Source: Candidatus Fervidifonticultor quintus
Lineage (GTDB): Bacteria; Sysuimicrobiota; Sysuimicrobiia; Sysuimicrobiales; Humicultoraceae
Length of the DNA: 51,063 nt
Reading direction: 5' to 3'
Assembly (NCBI GenBank): GCA_031459535.1
Contig: JAVKIJ010000013.1
Span: forward strand, 1 to 51,063
Shown here: positions 9,694-14,950 of the stretch, piece after piece
Position numbering within the stretch: the first letter of the stretch is position 1
Layout of the letters: each line of letters begins with the position of its first letter
The notes under the pieces: model-generated
What the model saw: the letters and a program-made list of their open reading frames with translations, nothing else
Told to the model about the DNA's origin: nothing
Databases searched by the model: none
Made by a program: the position numbers and the translations under genes

Positions 9694-10626
9694 ATGCACG
9701 TCACGGTGCTGGGGAGTCTGAATACCGATCTCGTGGTATGGGCGCCGAGGTTGCCCCAGGTCGGCGAGACCGTGCCGGGCGGCACATTCGCCGTCTTCCA
9801 CGGCGGCAAGGGAGCCAATCAGGCCGTGGCGGCCGCGCGGTTGGGCGCGGAGGTCACCATGATCGGCTGTGTGGGTGCAGACGCCTTCGGGCGACAGTTG
9901 ATCGAGGGGCTGGCCGCTGAGGGCATCGATACCCGCCACGTGCGCGTTGCCGACGGTGCGGCATCTGGCGTCGCCCTCATCACGGTGGACCCCCAGGCGC
10001 GCAACACCATCGTGGTCGCCGCAGGCGCCAACGAACGCGTTGAGGCCCGTGACGTGGATGCCGCAGCCGAGGCCATCGCGGCCAGCCAGGTCCTCCTATT
10101 GCAGCTCGAGGTACCGCTGGACGCCGTCGTTCACGCGGCGACGTTGGCCCGACGCCACCGGTGCTGTATCATTCTGGATCCGGCCCCGGCGCCGGCGGCG
10201 CCGCTCCCCAAGGAGCTGTTCGAGTCCCTCTCGGTGATCGTCCCCAACGAGGTCGAAGCGCGCGTGCTGACCGGCGTTGATGTCAGCGACGAGGGCGGCG
10301 CCGCGGCGGCGGCGCGGCGGCTCCTGGTGATGGGTGCTCAGGCGGTGGTCATCAAGCGCGGGGCCGCCGGCGCCCTGTGGGCCACCGGATCCGAGAGTGA
10401 GGCAGTGCCCGGAATTCCGGTCCGGGCGGTCGACTCCACGGCGGCGGGCGACGCGTTCGCTGCCGCACTGGGGGTGGCCCTGGGAGAGGGCCGAGCACTG
10501 CGCGACGCGGTGCGCCTTGCCAACGCCGCCGCCGCGCTCTCCGTGACCCGCATGGGGGCCCAGCCGTCCATGCCGCGGCGCGATGAGGTGACGGCCTTTG
10601 CACGCGCGCGAGGCCTGTCGGTCTAG
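9694..10626 (+). CDS. rbsK: Ribokinase
   Basis: GSLNTD, GGKGANQAVAAARLG, LQLE, PNEVE, DSTAAGDAF. Confidence 0.93.
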   Translation: MHVTVLGSLNTDLVVWAPRLPQVGETVPGGTFAVFHGGKGANQAVAAARLGAEVTMIGCVGADAFGRQLIEGLAAEGIDTRHVRVADGAASGVALITVDPQARNTIVVAAGANERVEARDVDAAAEAIAASQVLLLQLEVPLDAVVHAATLARRHRCCIILDPAPAPAAPLPKELFESLSVIVPNEVEARVLTGVDVSDEGGAAAAARRLLVMGAQAVVIKRGAAGALWATGSESEAVPGIPVRAVDSTAAGDAFAAALGVALGEGRALRDAVRLANAAAALSVTRMGAQPSMPRRDEVTAFARARGLSV

Positions 10627-10648
10627 CGACCCGGCCCCGCTGCAGGCG

Positions 10649-11218
10649 CTACAAGAGCCGCGCGGTCACGCAGCCTTCGACCACCTCGATGAGCGCCCCA
10701 CCGGTCTTTCCGTCGCCCATGGTGCAGTTGACGACCAACGTCCCCTCGACCTCAGCGATGCCCGGTGACTCATGGATGTGGCCGCAGGCGTGCGCCTTCG
10801 GGCGCACCCGTGCCAGGATCTCGCGCACCGTGTGGGACCCCACGTGCTGTCCCGTGAATGCCACGTCCAGCGTGCCGCGCGGTGGCTCGTGTGTCACCAG
10901 CAGGTCGCATGGCCCTCCTACCTCGGGCCCGCCGAACGACACGCCGCCGATCACCACAGGCTCTGCCCCCGCCAGCCGGCCTCTGCGCGTGATGGTCTCT
11001 GCGGCGCGGGCATCATCCATGTTGCCGGGAACCGCGAGCACCGGCACGGGGAGGACGTGGAGGAGATCGAGGGCCTCTTCTCCCCGGCCCAGGTGGGTCA
11101 GGTCGCCGGGTAGCAGGACGACATCGGGGTGGTGCTCGGCGACCAGGGCTCGCACGCGCGCGATGCGCTCGGGACGGCCGTGGATGTCGGCGCAGGCCAG
11201 CACCCGCAGCCCGGCCAT
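10649..11218 (-). CDS. Calcineurin-like metallophosphoesterase
   Basis: ADIHG, PGDLT, PGNMD, THEPP, GHIHE. Confidence 0.9.
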   Translation of the reverse strand: MAGLRVLACADIHGRPERIARVRALVAEHHPDVVLLPGDLTHLGRGEEALDLLHVLPVPVLAVPGNMDDARAAETITRRGRLAGAEPVVIGGVSFGGPEVGGPCDLLVTHEPPRGTLDVAFTGQHVGSHTVREILARVRPKAHACGHIHESPGIAEVEGTLVVNCTMGDGKTGGALIEVVEGCVTARLL

Positions 11219-11222
11219 GCCC

Positions 11223-11750
11223 CTAACCCTCCGATGTCTGCGACGACCCGGACGACCCGGTCGCCACGTGACGCCGGTAGGCCTCGCGCACGAGGCGCCA
11301 GGCCTCGCCCGCTCCAGCCCACCCGTAGATCTCCACCGCCTTCTCCTCGAGGGTCTTGTACGTCGTGAAAAAGTGTTCGATCTCCTTGAGAAAGTGCGGC
11401 GGCACATGGTCGAGGTCGGCCACGCCGTCGAAGCGGGGGTCGCCGAGGGGCACCGCCAGGATCTTCTGATCCCGGCCCTTCTCGTCCCGCATATCCAGCA
11501 CCCCGATGGGTCGCACCTCCACCAGGCAGCCCGGGAAGGTGGGTTCATAGACGAAGATCAACACGTCCAGATGGTCGCCGTCTTCGGCCATGGTATCCAG
11601 CAGGAAGCCGTAGTCTGCGGGATAGTGCAGCGGCGAGTACAGCACGCGATCTAGGCGGATGCCTCCGTGCGCCGGGTCGATCTCGTACTTGTTGCGGCTG
11701 CCCCGCGGTACCTCCACTTGTGCCAGCAACGCCCGCGGCTGGTCGCTCAT
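11223..11750 (-). CDS. ppa: Family I inorganic pyrophosphatase
   Basis: RNKYE, LDRVLY, YPADYG, DGDHLDV, DQKIL, HFFTTYK. Confidence 0.95.
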   Translation of the reverse strand: MSDQPRALLAQVEVPRGSRNKYEIDPAHGGIRLDRVLYSPLHYPADYGFLLDTMAEDGDHLDVLIFVYEPTFPGCLVEVRPIGVLDMRDEKGRDQKILAVPLGDPRFDGVADLDHVPPHFLKEIEHFFTTYKTLEEKAVEIYGWAGAGEAWRLVREAYRRHVATGSSGSSQTSEG

Positions 11751-12148
11751 GTCGCCTCTCCTGTCAGGTCCTTGATGAGGTCCCGGATCCGCTGCGCAAG
11801 CCCGTCGCGCACCTCGCGGTAGAAGTCCATCTCTTGCCCGGCCGGATTGGGGATCGGCCAGTGCAGGCTGGGGATGCCCGGGGTGACCGGGCAGGCCTCT
11901 TCGGCACACAGCCCAATCACCAGCCGCACGTCGGGATTCATGGCCTGCGCCATGGACTTCGGCCGGTGCCGTTCAATATCGACGCCGATCTCGCGCATGA
12001 CGGCCACGGCCTCTCTGCGCACCGCCTCCCCAGGGTCCGTCCCCGCGGACCGCGCGGCCCAACCCGCCGGCGCCAGGGCGTTGAAGAGCCCCTCGGCCAT
12101 CTGCGAGCGGGCGGTGTTGTGGTGTCAAACGAACAGGACGTGGCGCAC
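11747..12148 (-). CDS. arsC: Thioredoxin-type arsenate reductase (LMW-PTP fold), predicted selenoprotein with Sec at codon 8
   Basis: GAGGAGG SD then GTG CGC CAC GTC CTG TTC GTT TGA CAC CAC AAC ACC GCC CGC TCG CAG ATG GCC GAG = MRHVLFV[U]HHNTARSQMAE; also SAGT, LCAEEACP, LHW. Confidence 0.85.
12088..12112 (-). promoter_or_regulatory. Candidate bacterial SECIS hairpin downstream of the in-frame UGA
   Basis: mRNA GCCC-G-CUCG-C[AGAUG]G-C-CGAG-GGGC; apical loop starts about 22 nt after UGA with G at loop position 2. Confidence 0.6.
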
Positions 12149-12170
12149 GACGGCCTCCTCGATCGAAGTG

Positions 12171-12827
12171 CTACACATTCAGCTCGCGAAGTTCCCCGGT
12201 AGCGACGTAGATGACCCGTTCAGCCATGTTGGTGATGTGGTCGGCCGCGCGCTCGAGGTGCTGGGCAACGAGGAGTAGCTCCAGCGCCCGCGGGACCGTG
12301 GCGGGATCGCTGATCATGTAGGTGAGCAACTCCCGGAAGACCTGGCTGCGGAGGGCGTCCACCTCGTCATCCATTCTGGCGGCCGCTTCGGCCAGGGTCA
12401 CGTCACGGCTGAGGAACGCCTCGACGACCCGGTGCAGCATGTTCTGGACCAGGGCTTCCATCCGCGGGATGTCAATCAACGGCTTGAGCAACGGCTGATG
12501 GGCCAGCCGCTTCGCGGCCTTCGAGATACCCTCGGCGTGGTCGGCCATGCGCTCCAGGTCGATGGTGATGGCCAGCACGGCGGCAATGGTTCGCAGGTCG
12601 GAGGCCATGGGCTGCTGCAGGACCAGCAGGCGCATGTACCGGTTCTCCAGGTCCATGTGGAGAGCGTCGATGCCGTCGTCGTCGCGAATGACCTGATCGG
12701 CTCGGGCCGGGTCCCGGTTCCGCAGCGCTTCGACGGACGCGTGGATGGCTGCCCCTGCTATTCGCGCCATGTGCAGCACGTCCGCCTGCAGTGCCTCGAG
12801 TTCTCGGACAAAGAGGTCTCTCGTCAC
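12171..12827 (-). CDS. phoU: Phosphate signalling protein PhoU
   Basis: DDDGID, LQQPMASDLR, DLERMADHA, DDEVD, LERAADHITNMAERVIY. Confidence 0.96.
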   Translation of the reverse strand: MTRDLFVRELEALQADVLHMARIAGAAIHASVEALRNRDPARADQVIRDDDGIDALHMDLENRYMRLLVLQQPMASDLRTIAAVLAITIDLERMADHAEGISKAAKRLAHQPLLKPLIDIPRMEALVQNMLHRVVEAFLSRDVTLAEAAARMDDEVDALRSQVFRELLTYMISDPATVPRALELLLVAQHLERAADHITNMAERVIYVATGELRELNV

Positions 12828-12840
12828 GCCCGGTCCCGAC

Positions 12841-13779
12841 CTACCGGAGGTCGAGGCGGTACCCGATCCCCCGCACGGCCAGGATGCGCACGCCTCCGCG
12901 GGCCTCGACCTTCCTACGCAGCCAGCCCACGTGCGTATCCAGGGTCCGGGAGTCGCCGAAGTAGTCTTCGCCCCACACCTCGCGCAGGAGCCGCTCGCGC
13001 CGGACCACCTTGCCCTGGTGCCTGAGGAGGAGATGCAGCAGGCTGAACTCCTTTGCGGTAAGCGGAACCGGCTCGCCGGCCACCGTGGTCTCGTGACGCT
13101 CGGTGTCCATGACGAGGCGGCCAGCCACGAGCCGGTGATCGGCCCCGGTCCGCATGACGAGGCCTTCGAGGACGTTGGCGATGTCCTCGCACCGGTCGGT
13201 GCCGGTCTCGAGCATCTCGCAGATGTCTTTCCACTTGATGATTTCCCGGGCGTCACGCCGACTGGTGAACAGGGCCTCCAGGGCGTCCCGCAGCAGGTCG
13301 TCTCCGCGGTTCTCCAGGCGGTGCAGGGCACGGGTGTGGGAGAACACCTCGCGCCCGCTGCGCGCTTCCTCCAACGCCTGGCTGATCTCCCTGGCGCACT
13401 GCAGCATGACCTCGCCCAGCGCCCGCGCGGTGGGCAGGACGCGACGGATCCGGTGGATGGCCAACCGCGCGGCGGCCGCCTCGATGGCGTCCAGCACGTC
13501 GTCCAGGAATCCGGTCAGGGACTGCAGGGCTTCTCGCTCGCCGGGCGGACCGCCAAGGCGCGCCAGCGCCTCGAAGAGGTCCCGGGCGACCGCGTCGCCC
13601 TTGTGCTCCAGGTCGCGGACAGTCTGCCAGACGCCGTCGAAAGCCGCCCGGGCCTCCAACCCGGCCATCAGGGACTCGGCAGCGTCCAGAATGGCACGGG
13701 CCATCTCTTCGAGCAGCTCGAACTCTCGCTCGAGGACGGACGGAGGAGTGCTGGTGGAGAAGGCCCGAACATCAGCCAT
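12841..13779 (-). CDS. DUF47 (Pit accessory/PhoU-like) domain fused to an OmpR/PhoB-type winged-helix DNA-binding domain
   Basis: N-terminal LEHKGD, LDDVLD, LENRGD, IIKWKDICEMLETGTDRCED; C-terminal LTAKEFSLL, LLREVWG, SRTLDTHVGWLRRK, VRGIGYR. Confidence 0.88.
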   Translation of the reverse strand: MADVRAFSTSTPPSVLEREFELLEEMARAILDAAESLMAGLEARAAFDGVWQTVRDLEHKGDAVARDLFEALARLGGPPGEREALQSLTGFLDDVLDAIEAAAARLAIHRIRRVLPTARALGEVMLQCAREISQALEEARSGREVFSHTRALHRLENRGDDLLRDALEALFTSRRDAREIIKWKDICEMLETGTDRCEDIANVLEGLVMRTGADHRLVAGRLVMDTERHETTVAGEPVPLTAKEFSLLHLLLRHQGKVVRRERLLREVWGEDYFGDSRTLDTHVGWLRRKVEARGGVRILAVRGIGYRLDLR

Positions 13780-13816
13780 GCTGCATTGAGCATACCACGC
13801 CCGCGGCGCGGGCGCG

Positions 13817-14950
13817 CTAGCCGTAGAGCGGCAACGGGTGCGGTCGCAGCGCGTCGCCGATGCGGCGGCGAACGCCCTCAAAGACCTCCAGATCGTATTG
13901 CCCCACGAACGTGATGGCCTCGCCCCGGCGACCGGCGCGAGCCGTGCGTCCCACCCGGTGCACGTAGGTGTCCAGGTCTTCCGGCACGTCGTAGTTAATG
14001 ACGTGGGAGACATCGGGCAGGTCCAGACCCCGCGAGGCCACATTGGTGGCGACCAACACCCGGGCCTGCCCCGCGGCGAACGCCGCAAGGGCGCGTAGCC
14101 GGGCCCCCTGGGTCATGTCACCGTGCAGGACCTCGGCGTGCACCCCGCGCTCCCGCAGGACCTTCGCCAGGCGATCCACCCCCCGCCGCGTGCGCCGGAA
14201 GACCAGGGCCGACGGCACCTCGCCGCTGGTCAGCAGCAGCCGCAGCGCCCGCACCTTGTCCTGCTCGGCCACTTCCAGGAAGTACTGGGTGACGGTTTGG
14301 ACGGTCGGCGCTGGCGCCGCGATCCTGATCCAGACCGGGCGCCGCAGGTACCGGACCGCCAGGCTGGAGATGGCATCGGGCAGGGTCGCCGAGAAGAGCG
14401 CGGTCTGGCGGGCCGCCGGCGTCTGACGGATGATGGCCTCCACATCGGGCAGGAACCCCATGTCCAGCATCCGGTCGGCTTCGTCCAGCACCAGGAAGCG
14501 GATTGCGTCGAGGCGCACACTGCCGCGCCGCAGGTGGTCCAGCAGCCGGCCCGGTGTCGCCACAATCACTTGCACGCCCGCACGCAGCGACGCCAGCTGC
14601 CTTGCCATGGGCTGGCCGCCGTAGAGCGCGGCGGTGCGGAGACGCGATGTGGCCAGCCCGCGGACGACGTCCGAGATCTGGATGGCCAGTTCGCGGGTCG
14701 GGGCCAGGACCAGCGCGCCAGCAGCCCGCGCCCTGCGGTCGAGACGCTCGACCATGGGGATCGCGAAGGCGCCGGTCTTGCCTGAACCGGTCTGCGCCTG
14801 TCCGGCCACGTCGTGGCCGTCCAGCAGCGCGGGAATCGCCTGCGACTGAATCGGGGTGGGTTCGGTCCACCCCAGAGCTGAGATGGCCCGGAGGGTTTCC
14901 GGGCTCAAGGCGAAGCCGCCGAACGCCGCTTCGCGCGTCGAGGTAGAAAT
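13817..14950 (-). CDS. DEAD-box RNA helicase (probable ATT start)
   Basis: PTPIQ, AQTGSGKT, PTRELA, TPGRL, DEAD, SAT, HGD, RGLD, HRVGRTAR. Confidence 0.93.
   Translation of the reverse strand: MSTSTREAAFGGFALSPETLRAISALGWTEPTPIQSQAIPALLDGHDVAGQAQTGSGKTGAFAIPMVERLDRRARAAGALVLAPTRELAIQISDVVRGLATSRLRTAALYGGQPMARQLASLRAGVQVIVATPGRLLDHLRRGSVRLDAIRFLVLDEADRMLDMGFLPDVEAIIRQTPAARQTALFSATLPDAISSLAVRYLRRPVWIRIAAPAPTVQTVTQYFLEVAEQDKVRALRLLLTSGEVPSALVFRRTRRGVDRLAKVLRERGVHAEVLHGDMTQGARLRALAAFAAGQARVLVATNVASRGLDLPDVSHVINYDVPEDLDTYVHRVGRTARAGRRGEAITFVGQYDLEVFEGVRRRIGDALRPHPLPLYG

Follow-up and report, generated by a model that had tools for sequence, protein, structure and literature searches.

Several described systems come close to the locus reported here, among them three groups of proteins. 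PhoB, PhoP and RegX3 are winged-helix response regulators of the OmpR family that serve the Pho regulon and have a receiver domain, PhoU and the DUF47/PhoU_div (PitR-type) proteins share a helical fold with conserved acidic motifs, and the thioredoxin-coupled arsenate reductases (ArsC) of S. aureus pI258 and B. subtilis have the fold of low-molecular-weight protein tyrosine phosphatases (LMW-PTP). The way in which proteins of the PhoU fold detect the flux of phosphate and relay this signal is a long-standing question. We analysed a 51,063-nucleotide contig of Candidatus Fervidifonticultor quintus (JAVKIJ010000013.1, the whole of which we call the window), in which positions 10649–13779 contain five co-directional minus-strand open reading frames. 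Using Pfam and NCBIfam, we assigned these to a fusion of a DUF47 (PhoU_div) domain with a PhoB-type winged helix, phoU, an ArsC-like gene, a family I inorganic pyrophosphatase (ppa) and a small calcineurin-like metallophosphoesterase. Comparison with related genomes makes it fairly probable that the five genes derive from a Pho locus specific to this lineage that has lost its transporter genes, and are not a purpose-built five-gene machine. We further propose, with limited confidence, that the fusion may be a one-protein phosphate sensor-regulator modulated by PhoU, with the pair working in trans on distant pst genes, and that the ArsC-like gene may found an uncatalogued family of selenocysteine (Sec)-containing, LMW-PTP-fold ArsC proteins that clear arsenate leaked in through phosphate transporters. 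A natural fusion of a PhoU-fold domain to a PhoB-type DNA binder would shrink the relay to one protein.

The host genome, of which the window is one contig (G000; a 3.1-Mb assembly in 138 contigs, 68.7% G+C, 88.85% completeness), was compared with 40 relatives, giving a set of 41 genomes. The full-length fusion was present in 23 of the 41, the unpublished G022 among them. We mapped genes by tblastn in about 7 kb on each side of the fusion in 20 of the 22 fusion-bearing relatives. The pst genes lay directly 3′ of the fusion, on the same strand, in 16 of these 20 loci; pstCAB lay directly upstream in two (G003 and G012), and phoU followed the fusion directly, with no pst gene in reach, in another two (G001 and G005). 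The stretch of ~3.9 kb between fusion and phoU in relatives corresponded to pstS, pstC, pstA and pstB, as seen with Pfam. A second set of 41 loci was drawn from species-representative genomes and overlapped the first, with two genes each split over two contigs. Here, pst genes were found directly downstream of the fusion in 26 loci and upstream or divergent in 4; in a further 5 loci, phoU was the gene next to the fusion on its 3′ side. One of these loci, L144, reads glnA, dCMP deaminase, DEAD, fusion, pstSCAB, phoU, arsC, ppa and ribokinase, which is the order of the window with pstSCAB added and the metallophosphoesterase omitted.

Placement of phoU right after pstSCAB, a feature of Pst-PhoU operons, was seen in most relatives and is absent from the window. 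The window phoU (12171–12827, minus strand; TIGR02135 211.4 bits, cut-off 130.25) was 73–79% identical to the phoU following pstB in L111, L118, L144 and others, compared with only 52% identity to the second phoU of its own genome on contig C54. Since the window phoU is closer to the pst-linked phoU of relatives than to the C54 copy, we read the arrangement as a clean loss of pstSCAB together with its promoter. The absence of pstSCAB is thus a secondary loss, in this genome and a few congeners. The original prediction correctly stated that pst, pit, arsB and acr3 are missing nearby (in G000, pst genes were found only on C54 and PHO4 only on C90, and searches of the 88.85%-complete genome gave neither acr3 nor ArsB). 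The layout in relatives speaks against reading the missing pstSCAB as a design feature.

Two aspects of the comparison weaken the case for a transporter-less Pho locus. Related genomes are kin and not independent samples, so that the counts overstate independence, and neither pst nor phoU was in reach of the fusion in 6 of the 41 loci, 4 of which had the full 7 kb on both sides. The loss of the cognate transporter genes and of the PHO-box promoter could also mean that the regulator and phoU of G000 no longer have a function, being remnants of a pst operon now deleted and heading to decay. We regard this as improbable. Neither frame is interrupted, and the residues that are invariant in the two families are all present. 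A second assembly encodes identical proteins, and the arrangement of fusion followed by phoU is shared by no fewer than five further genomes at species level (G001, G003, G005, G015 and G022), each with a Pst system elsewhere. In addition, contigs from RNA libraries cover both the fusion and phoU. A natural transporter-deleted locus of this kind speaks for retention of the regulator/PhoU pair in its own right.

The RNA-library contigs came from two hot-spring metatranscriptome runs that contain parts of the region. They span the fusion/phoU and phoU/arsC junctions, and an in-frame TGA of the ArsC-like gene, described below, is kept in the contig of a variant strain. As evidence for expression of a discrete cluster they are tempered by their nature, being contigs only, with no ends, strand or levels and with DNA carry-over possible, and by one contig that also joins the upstream DEAD-box gene to the fusion. 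They show the presence of the region in RNA libraries only, and stretches that they leave uncovered carry no information.

The Pst system of G000 was found by tblastn only on C54 (C54:23435–29871; L058 4418–10872), where pstS, pstB and the second phoU are accompanied by long forms of pstC and pstA. The four genes of this operon that were scanned together against NCBIfam scored above the cut-offs, and so did pstB, with 407 bits for TIGR00972. The frames for PstC (762 amino acids) and PstA (607 amino acids) are unusually long, with permease domains confined to the C-terminal halves and N-terminal extensions beyond them. A pair of a DUF47 gene (TIGR00153) and a PHO4-family gene is located on C90, the only contig of G000 on which PHO4 was found. 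Across the genomes, PstB scored above the cut-off in 22 of the 23 that carry the fusion; the exception was G025, where the locus is cut by a contig end. In family f1, PstB was found in every one of the 17 fusion-bearing genomes and in 0 of the 8 others. Families f4 and f5 included six genomes that have PstB without the fusion. The unpublished genomes G022 and G013 are part of these counts. In G011 and G019 (loci L118 and L120), a Pit gene with its DUF47 partner lies divergently adjacent to the fusion, pstSCAB and phoU, which places the two phosphate uptake systems, along with the two DUF47-type genes, around a single intergenic region.

The original prediction had described these five genes as one compact system, with a pair of PhoU-fold proteins linking the release of phosphate, by pyrophosphatase and phosphoesterase, to Sec-dependent handling of arsenate. 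Its description of the gene arrangement was accurate. All five genes are co-directional, with 13 nt between fusion and phoU, 22 nt between phoU and arsC, a 4-nt ATGA overlap of arsC and ppa, and 4 nt between ppa and the metallophosphoesterase, and such tight spacing in a single orientation speaks in favour of an integrated system. The same order was found, with 99–100% protein identity, in the separately assembled contig L109 from the same organism type, where the cluster is followed by ribokinase and metallo-beta-lactamase-fold genes as in the window; the order is therefore no assembly artefact. However, the compact system fails a check that the original prediction had itself set, as gene order is not conserved, with the complete five-gene order found only in G000 and L109 among the 41 genomes and 41 loci.

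The individual genes at the end of the cluster also speak against integration. The metallophosphoesterase (10649–11218, minus strand; PF00149 58.4 bits, cut-off 21.5) had orthologues in 27 of the 41 genomes and was adjacent to the cluster only in the lineage of this organism. In three f2 genomes it lay 2–10 kb from the fusion, a point in favour of a functional connection; otherwise it was found on other contigs or more than 100 kb away, and, being unlinked in most genomes that have it, it adjoins the locus here but is no conserved part of it. It showed weak similarity to solved structures and a score of 25.7 against the YfcE subfamily (cut-off 56.25), and may have come next to the cluster by local rearrangement. 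The ppa gene (11223–11750, minus strand; PF00719 182 bits; NCBIfam equivalog 153.7, cut-off 200) was the only family-I copy found in G000 by tblastn. It is therefore probably a housekeeping pyrophosphatase, co-transcribed with the ArsC-like gene. Given these results and the derived loss of pstSCAB, we consider an integrated five-gene system highly improbable. From the proposed phosphate–arsenate coupling, a looser link between the genes across relatives survives, while a single machine for phosphate release and arsenate handling is unsupported.

We then analysed the regulator that heads the transporter-less locus. The fusion gene (12841–13779, minus strand) matched PF01865 with 53.1 bits (PhoU_div, residues 16–209, cut-off 24.4 bits) and PF00486 (Trans_reg_C) with 96.3 bits, and no Response_reg domain was matched in the protein by Pfam. 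An AlphaFold model with a predicted local distance difference test (pLDDT) value of 89.3 showed six helices at residues 17–210 and a winged helix at 216–311. In Foldseek searches, the N-terminus matched the DUF47 protein 3L39, with a template modelling (TM) score of 0.86 and a root-mean-square deviation of 2.3, and the C-terminus matched the effector domains of PhoP, PhoB and YycF; PhoB was also the best NCBIfam match of the C-terminus. The acidic motifs of the PhoU fold were invariant across 34 homologues of the fusion.

The fusion therefore resembles PhoB, PhoP and RegX3 in its winged-helix effector domain (Foldseek TM 0.8–0.9) and in the location of its genes at pst operons with 11-bp-phased direct repeats, which are candidate sites read from the sequence. 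Unlike these regulators, it has no receiver domain and no phospho-acceptor Asp, six helices at its N-terminus form a DUF47 domain resembling PhoU, and there is no adjacent kinase gene. It shares the fold and the conserved acidic motifs with PhoU and the DUF47/PhoU_div proteins, which are accessory to Pst and Pit transporters, and the stand-alone DUF47 genes of the lineage precede PHO4/Pit genes, as in the PitR type. In contrast to the fusion, known members of these families stand alone and are without a DNA-binding domain.

A search of 1.84 billion representatives at 50% identity yielded one full-length fusion representative, the rest being stand-alone DUF47 or winged-helix proteins. At the 90% identity level, 359 clusters were matched (E ≤ 0.001), and all 120 of the 120 listed carry both Pfam domains; such clusters are named merely ‘DUF47 family protein’ or similar. 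Literature searches for a DUF47-winged-helix fusion found nothing, and the main text of a paper on the candidate phylum CSP1-3, ‘Sysuimicrobiota’, makes no mention of PhoU, pst or selen- (PMC11604079). Two of the five best non-fusion matches to the C-terminus were PhoB-like response regulators encoded next to pstB and a Cys-type ArsC-like gene in family f5. These matches fit an origin of the fusion by replacement of a receiver domain.

Analysis of the region between the fusion gene and pstS in relatives revealed arrays of TTGAC, TTCAC and TTAAC pentamers, here called PHO boxes. In 17 of 23 loci, the 220 nt that follow the fusion gene contained at least one TTNAC-N6-TTNAC pair, compared with 0.015 loci in dinucleotide shuffles and 0 on the opposite strand. 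The distances between pentamers peaked at 11 nt (23 cases), 22 nt (20), 33 nt (9) and 44 nt (7). Comparable TTNAC arrays are found ahead of the fusion gene itself in some relatives. In G000, the pstS gene on C54 is preceded by TTGAC-N17-TTCAC-N6-TTGAC and then TACCCT, and the whole genome has only 11 TTNAC pairs vs 2 in a reversed-sequence control. Three perfect TTCAC repeats with 11-nt spacing were also observed at C61:34600–34626, 250 nt from the contig end and upstream of a small glycine- and methionine-rich open reading frame; judging from the repeats, this may be another Pho-regulon promoter.

We envisage an ancestral layout, still seen in most relatives, in which the regulator was followed by pstS, pstC, pstA, pstB and phoU, and often then by the ArsC-like gene and ppa. 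The DUF47 domain, in place of a receiver, would sense phosphate status either directly or via PhoU/PstB, and this reading would control binding of the winged helix to the 11-bp-phased TTNAC direct repeats at pstS promoters. In G000, pstSCAB and its promoter would have been deleted between regulator and phoU, leaving the regulator/PhoU pair to act in trans on the C54 pst operon, where the same boxes are present.

Structure prediction for PhoU together with the DUF47 domain of the fusion gave a complex with a score of 0.34, against 0.00 for the best control. The tool grades this only as ‘weak support’, and it is not evidence of binding. Of solved complexes, 116 of 157 attain the mark for the score, as do 2 of 215 mismatches, and a pass at or below 0.60 is wrong in more cases than it is right. 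At least 88% of contacts were the same between runs, with a pLDDT of at least 82 for the partners.

Several observations weigh against the fusion as the regulator of these boxes. A scan of the 51-kb window found no PHO-box pair, and there is thus no sign that the regulator controls its own cluster. TTNAC pairs were present at pstS in fusion-less genomes of family f5 as well, indicating that the boxes are not fusion-specific and belong to the general Pho system of the lineage. PhoB-like response regulators were found in 41 of 41 genomes, and the best one in G000 (264 bits vs a cut-off of 296) is adjoined by a WalK/PhoR-like kinase. Ordinary PhoB-like regulators, instead of the fusion, could bind the PHO boxes. 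The presence of such regulators in all 41 genomes also led us to reject the idea that the fusion is complementary to them. The fusion is therefore an addition to two-component signalling, and not a demonstrated replacement.

The ArsC-like gene (11747–12148, minus strand; LMWPc 76.2 bits in Pfam) starts with a GTG at 12148, with GAGGAGG 5 nt upstream, and its frame is open only if one TGA, at 12125–12127 on the minus strand, is read through. Alignment with pI258 ArsC placed this TGA at the catalytic Cys codon of the CX5R loop (residue 8). The residue it would encode, U8, aligns with Cys10, and the counterparts of Cys82 and Cys89 are C81 and C86. In 20 of the 41 genomes we found an orthologue (54–99% identity) that has a single in-frame TGA, in addition to a truncated copy in G008, while matches below 50% identity had no in-frame stop and a Cys at this position. 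The TGA was at the same codon in 20 of 20, and the start codon, itself preceded by a purine-rich stretch with a Shine-Dalgarno sequence, lies seven codons before it; the codons upstream of the TGA vary at third positions, with the residues VLFV kept. A database homologue with 70% identity (P0276) has Cys at the TGA position. The gene's own stop is also TGA, which excludes a general reassignment of this codon.

Machinery for Sec incorporation was detected in G000 as a tRNA-Sec on C130 and a selD with 373.9 bits, above the cut-off; selA and selB were found as fragments at contig ends only, below the cut-offs. The selD gene (C46:26773–27696, L106) has one in-frame TGA, and the predicted selenophosphate synthetase of G000 is itself likely a selenoprotein. 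A hairpin can be drawn 13–15 nt after the TGA of the ArsC-like gene (−13.1 kcal/mol, z −1.1), no better than shuffles. A search for a selenocysteine insertion sequence consensus with RNAalifold and for covariation found none (0 compensatory pairs, 73% of cells paired, not above shuffles), which counts against readthrough. From the conserved codon and its alignment, the gene likely encodes a Sec-containing protein with Sec at residue 8. The gene identities and the conserved TGA thus support the earlier view of the locus as phosphate-related, with an ArsC-like gene that is likely a selenoprotein. Databases hold this protein as a 113–117-residue form starting after the TGA. This matters for annotation, as the database form is truncated and without the catalytic residue.

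Sec also replaces the catalytic Cys in catalogued families named arsenate reductases. Those families, COG1393/TIGR00014 with UxxS and NF041106 with UxxC, are of another fold according to the portions of the catalogues available to us (PMC1088965, PMC13188914), in contrast to the LMW-PTP fold of the window protein. The main text of PMC13188914 contains none of the terms PF01451, phosphatase, tyrosine and low molecular weight, and that of PMC13326102 lacks PF01451, phosphatase and low molecular weight. In the available parts of the three selenoprotein catalogues (PMC1088965, PMC13188914, PMC13326102), we found no Sec protein of the LMW-PTP-fold ArsC type.

With regard to function, the best solved relative of the ArsC-like protein was 1Y1L of A. 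fulgidus. With this protein and the thioredoxin-coupled ArsC enzymes it shares the fold, the CX5R loop and two downstream cysteines, and the context of its P-loop, RSQMAEG, is one that we take to be ArsC-like. It differs from these enzymes in its TGA-encoded nucleophile, in the spacing of the downstream cysteines (CX4C vs CX6C), in the replacement of Asp105 by Asn, in scores below the equivalog cut-offs and in the lack of an ars operon context. Arsenate enters cells via phosphate transporters. In our proposal, the Sec form of a thioredoxin-type ArsC-like enzyme (U8, C81, C86) would most likely reduce the arsenate that enters by this route.

Some of these features count against an arsenate reductase. 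The protein scored 73.3 bits against TIGR02691 and 73.9 bits against NF010053, with cut-offs of 174.3 and 215, and the general-acid position, Asp105, is Asn in the window protein (8 of the 20 Sec orthologues have Asp there, and one has Ser). ArsB and acr3 were not found in the 88.85%-complete G000, in a search that did not extend to other pump types or arsR, and with no arsenite pump found, arsenate detoxification by the locus is unproven. The Sec protein might instead be a redox-sensitive phosphatase or a Pho signalling partner, acting for example on a Pho regulator or transporter. The LMW-PTP fold, the Asn at the general-acid position and the lack of an ArsB or acr3 pump in G000 would agree with this, as would the occurrence of the family within pho loci, where the Cys form of f5 is flanked by pstB on one side and by the gene for a PhoB-like response regulator on the other. 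On the other hand, the closest solved structures are all of the ArsC type (1Y1L, 1LJU/1JF8), all three redox positions known from thioredoxin-coupled ArsC are retained, as U8, C81 and C86, and arsenic islands provide a precedent for arsenic genes co-located with pst/pho genes, as far as the accessible part of that report shows (PMC3834237). We therefore consider a phosphatase or signalling role rather unlikely. Two further candidates were dismissed. A pairing of Sec with Asn at the general-acid position was rejected because 8 of 20 Sec orthologues have Asp, and methyltransferases by the ArsC-like gene in G021, G023 and G004 were rejected as ArsM because no ArsM model came near the cut-off.

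In most relatives the ArsC-like gene adjoins phoU, pstB or DUF47-Pit, in several arrangements. It followed phoU on the same strand in 8 of the 41 loci and was convergent with or near phoU in 3 more. It was divergent from DUF47-Pit in G001, G018, G006, G007 and G023, and two genes from DUF47-Pit in G012 and G020. The Cys form in family f5 lay between pstB and the PhoB-like response regulator. These results support a true association of the ArsC-like family with phosphate uptake, which fits the chemistry of arsenate entry and the arsenic islands with pst genes. In those islands, as described in the part of the report available, arsenic and phosphate-uptake genes are likewise co-located, but the arsenic genes are aio/ars operons with pumps (PMC3834237), whereas the window has a lone ArsC-like gene and no pump was found. 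The ArsC-like gene was followed by ppa in G000, G001, G003, G012, G018, G019, G020, L129 and L144, and ppa also comes after the truncated copy in G008.

Variants of the gene were seen in single genomes. In the f5 genomes G036 (C1:12252–17240) and G033 (C19:3354–5215), pstS to pstB are followed by the Cys-type ArsC-like gene, which begins 7–10 nt after pstB with no phoU between them, and by the PhoB-like response regulator. In G008 (L039/L111, 12299–12448), the Sec-ArsC gene after phoU lacks ~40 residues between VRxEA and EEACPV with its TGA kept, and looks like a decaying copy.

Upstream of the fusion gene, the stop codon of a DEAD-box helicase gene is 37 nt from the fusion-gene ATG. The sequence between them contains the extended −10-like word noted in the original prediction, TGGTATGCT (13797–13789, minus strand), whose presence 9 nt ahead of the ATG we confirmed. 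TGnTAnnnT words like TGGTATGCT were found 8–11 nt ahead of the start codon in at least nine relatives. Such a position suggests that the predicted fusion mRNA is leaderless or nearly so. Scanning 10400–14100 for consensus sigma-70 promoters and terminators gave no match, nor did searches of the window with Rfam (gathering thresholds) and ARAGORN. In L069 and L070 (G020 and G012), TGGTATCCT is located 6 nt ahead of the ATG of the ArsC-like gene. The recurrence in the lineage of extended −10 words abutting start codons suggests that leaderless mRNAs may be frequent.

Finally, G000 carries two transfer-messenger RNA genes, at C37:1334–1683 and C52:45–391, with the tags ANTQYALAA and ANTNYALAA. 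Their presence in one assembly fits the contamination estimate of 5.24% or a mix of two strains.

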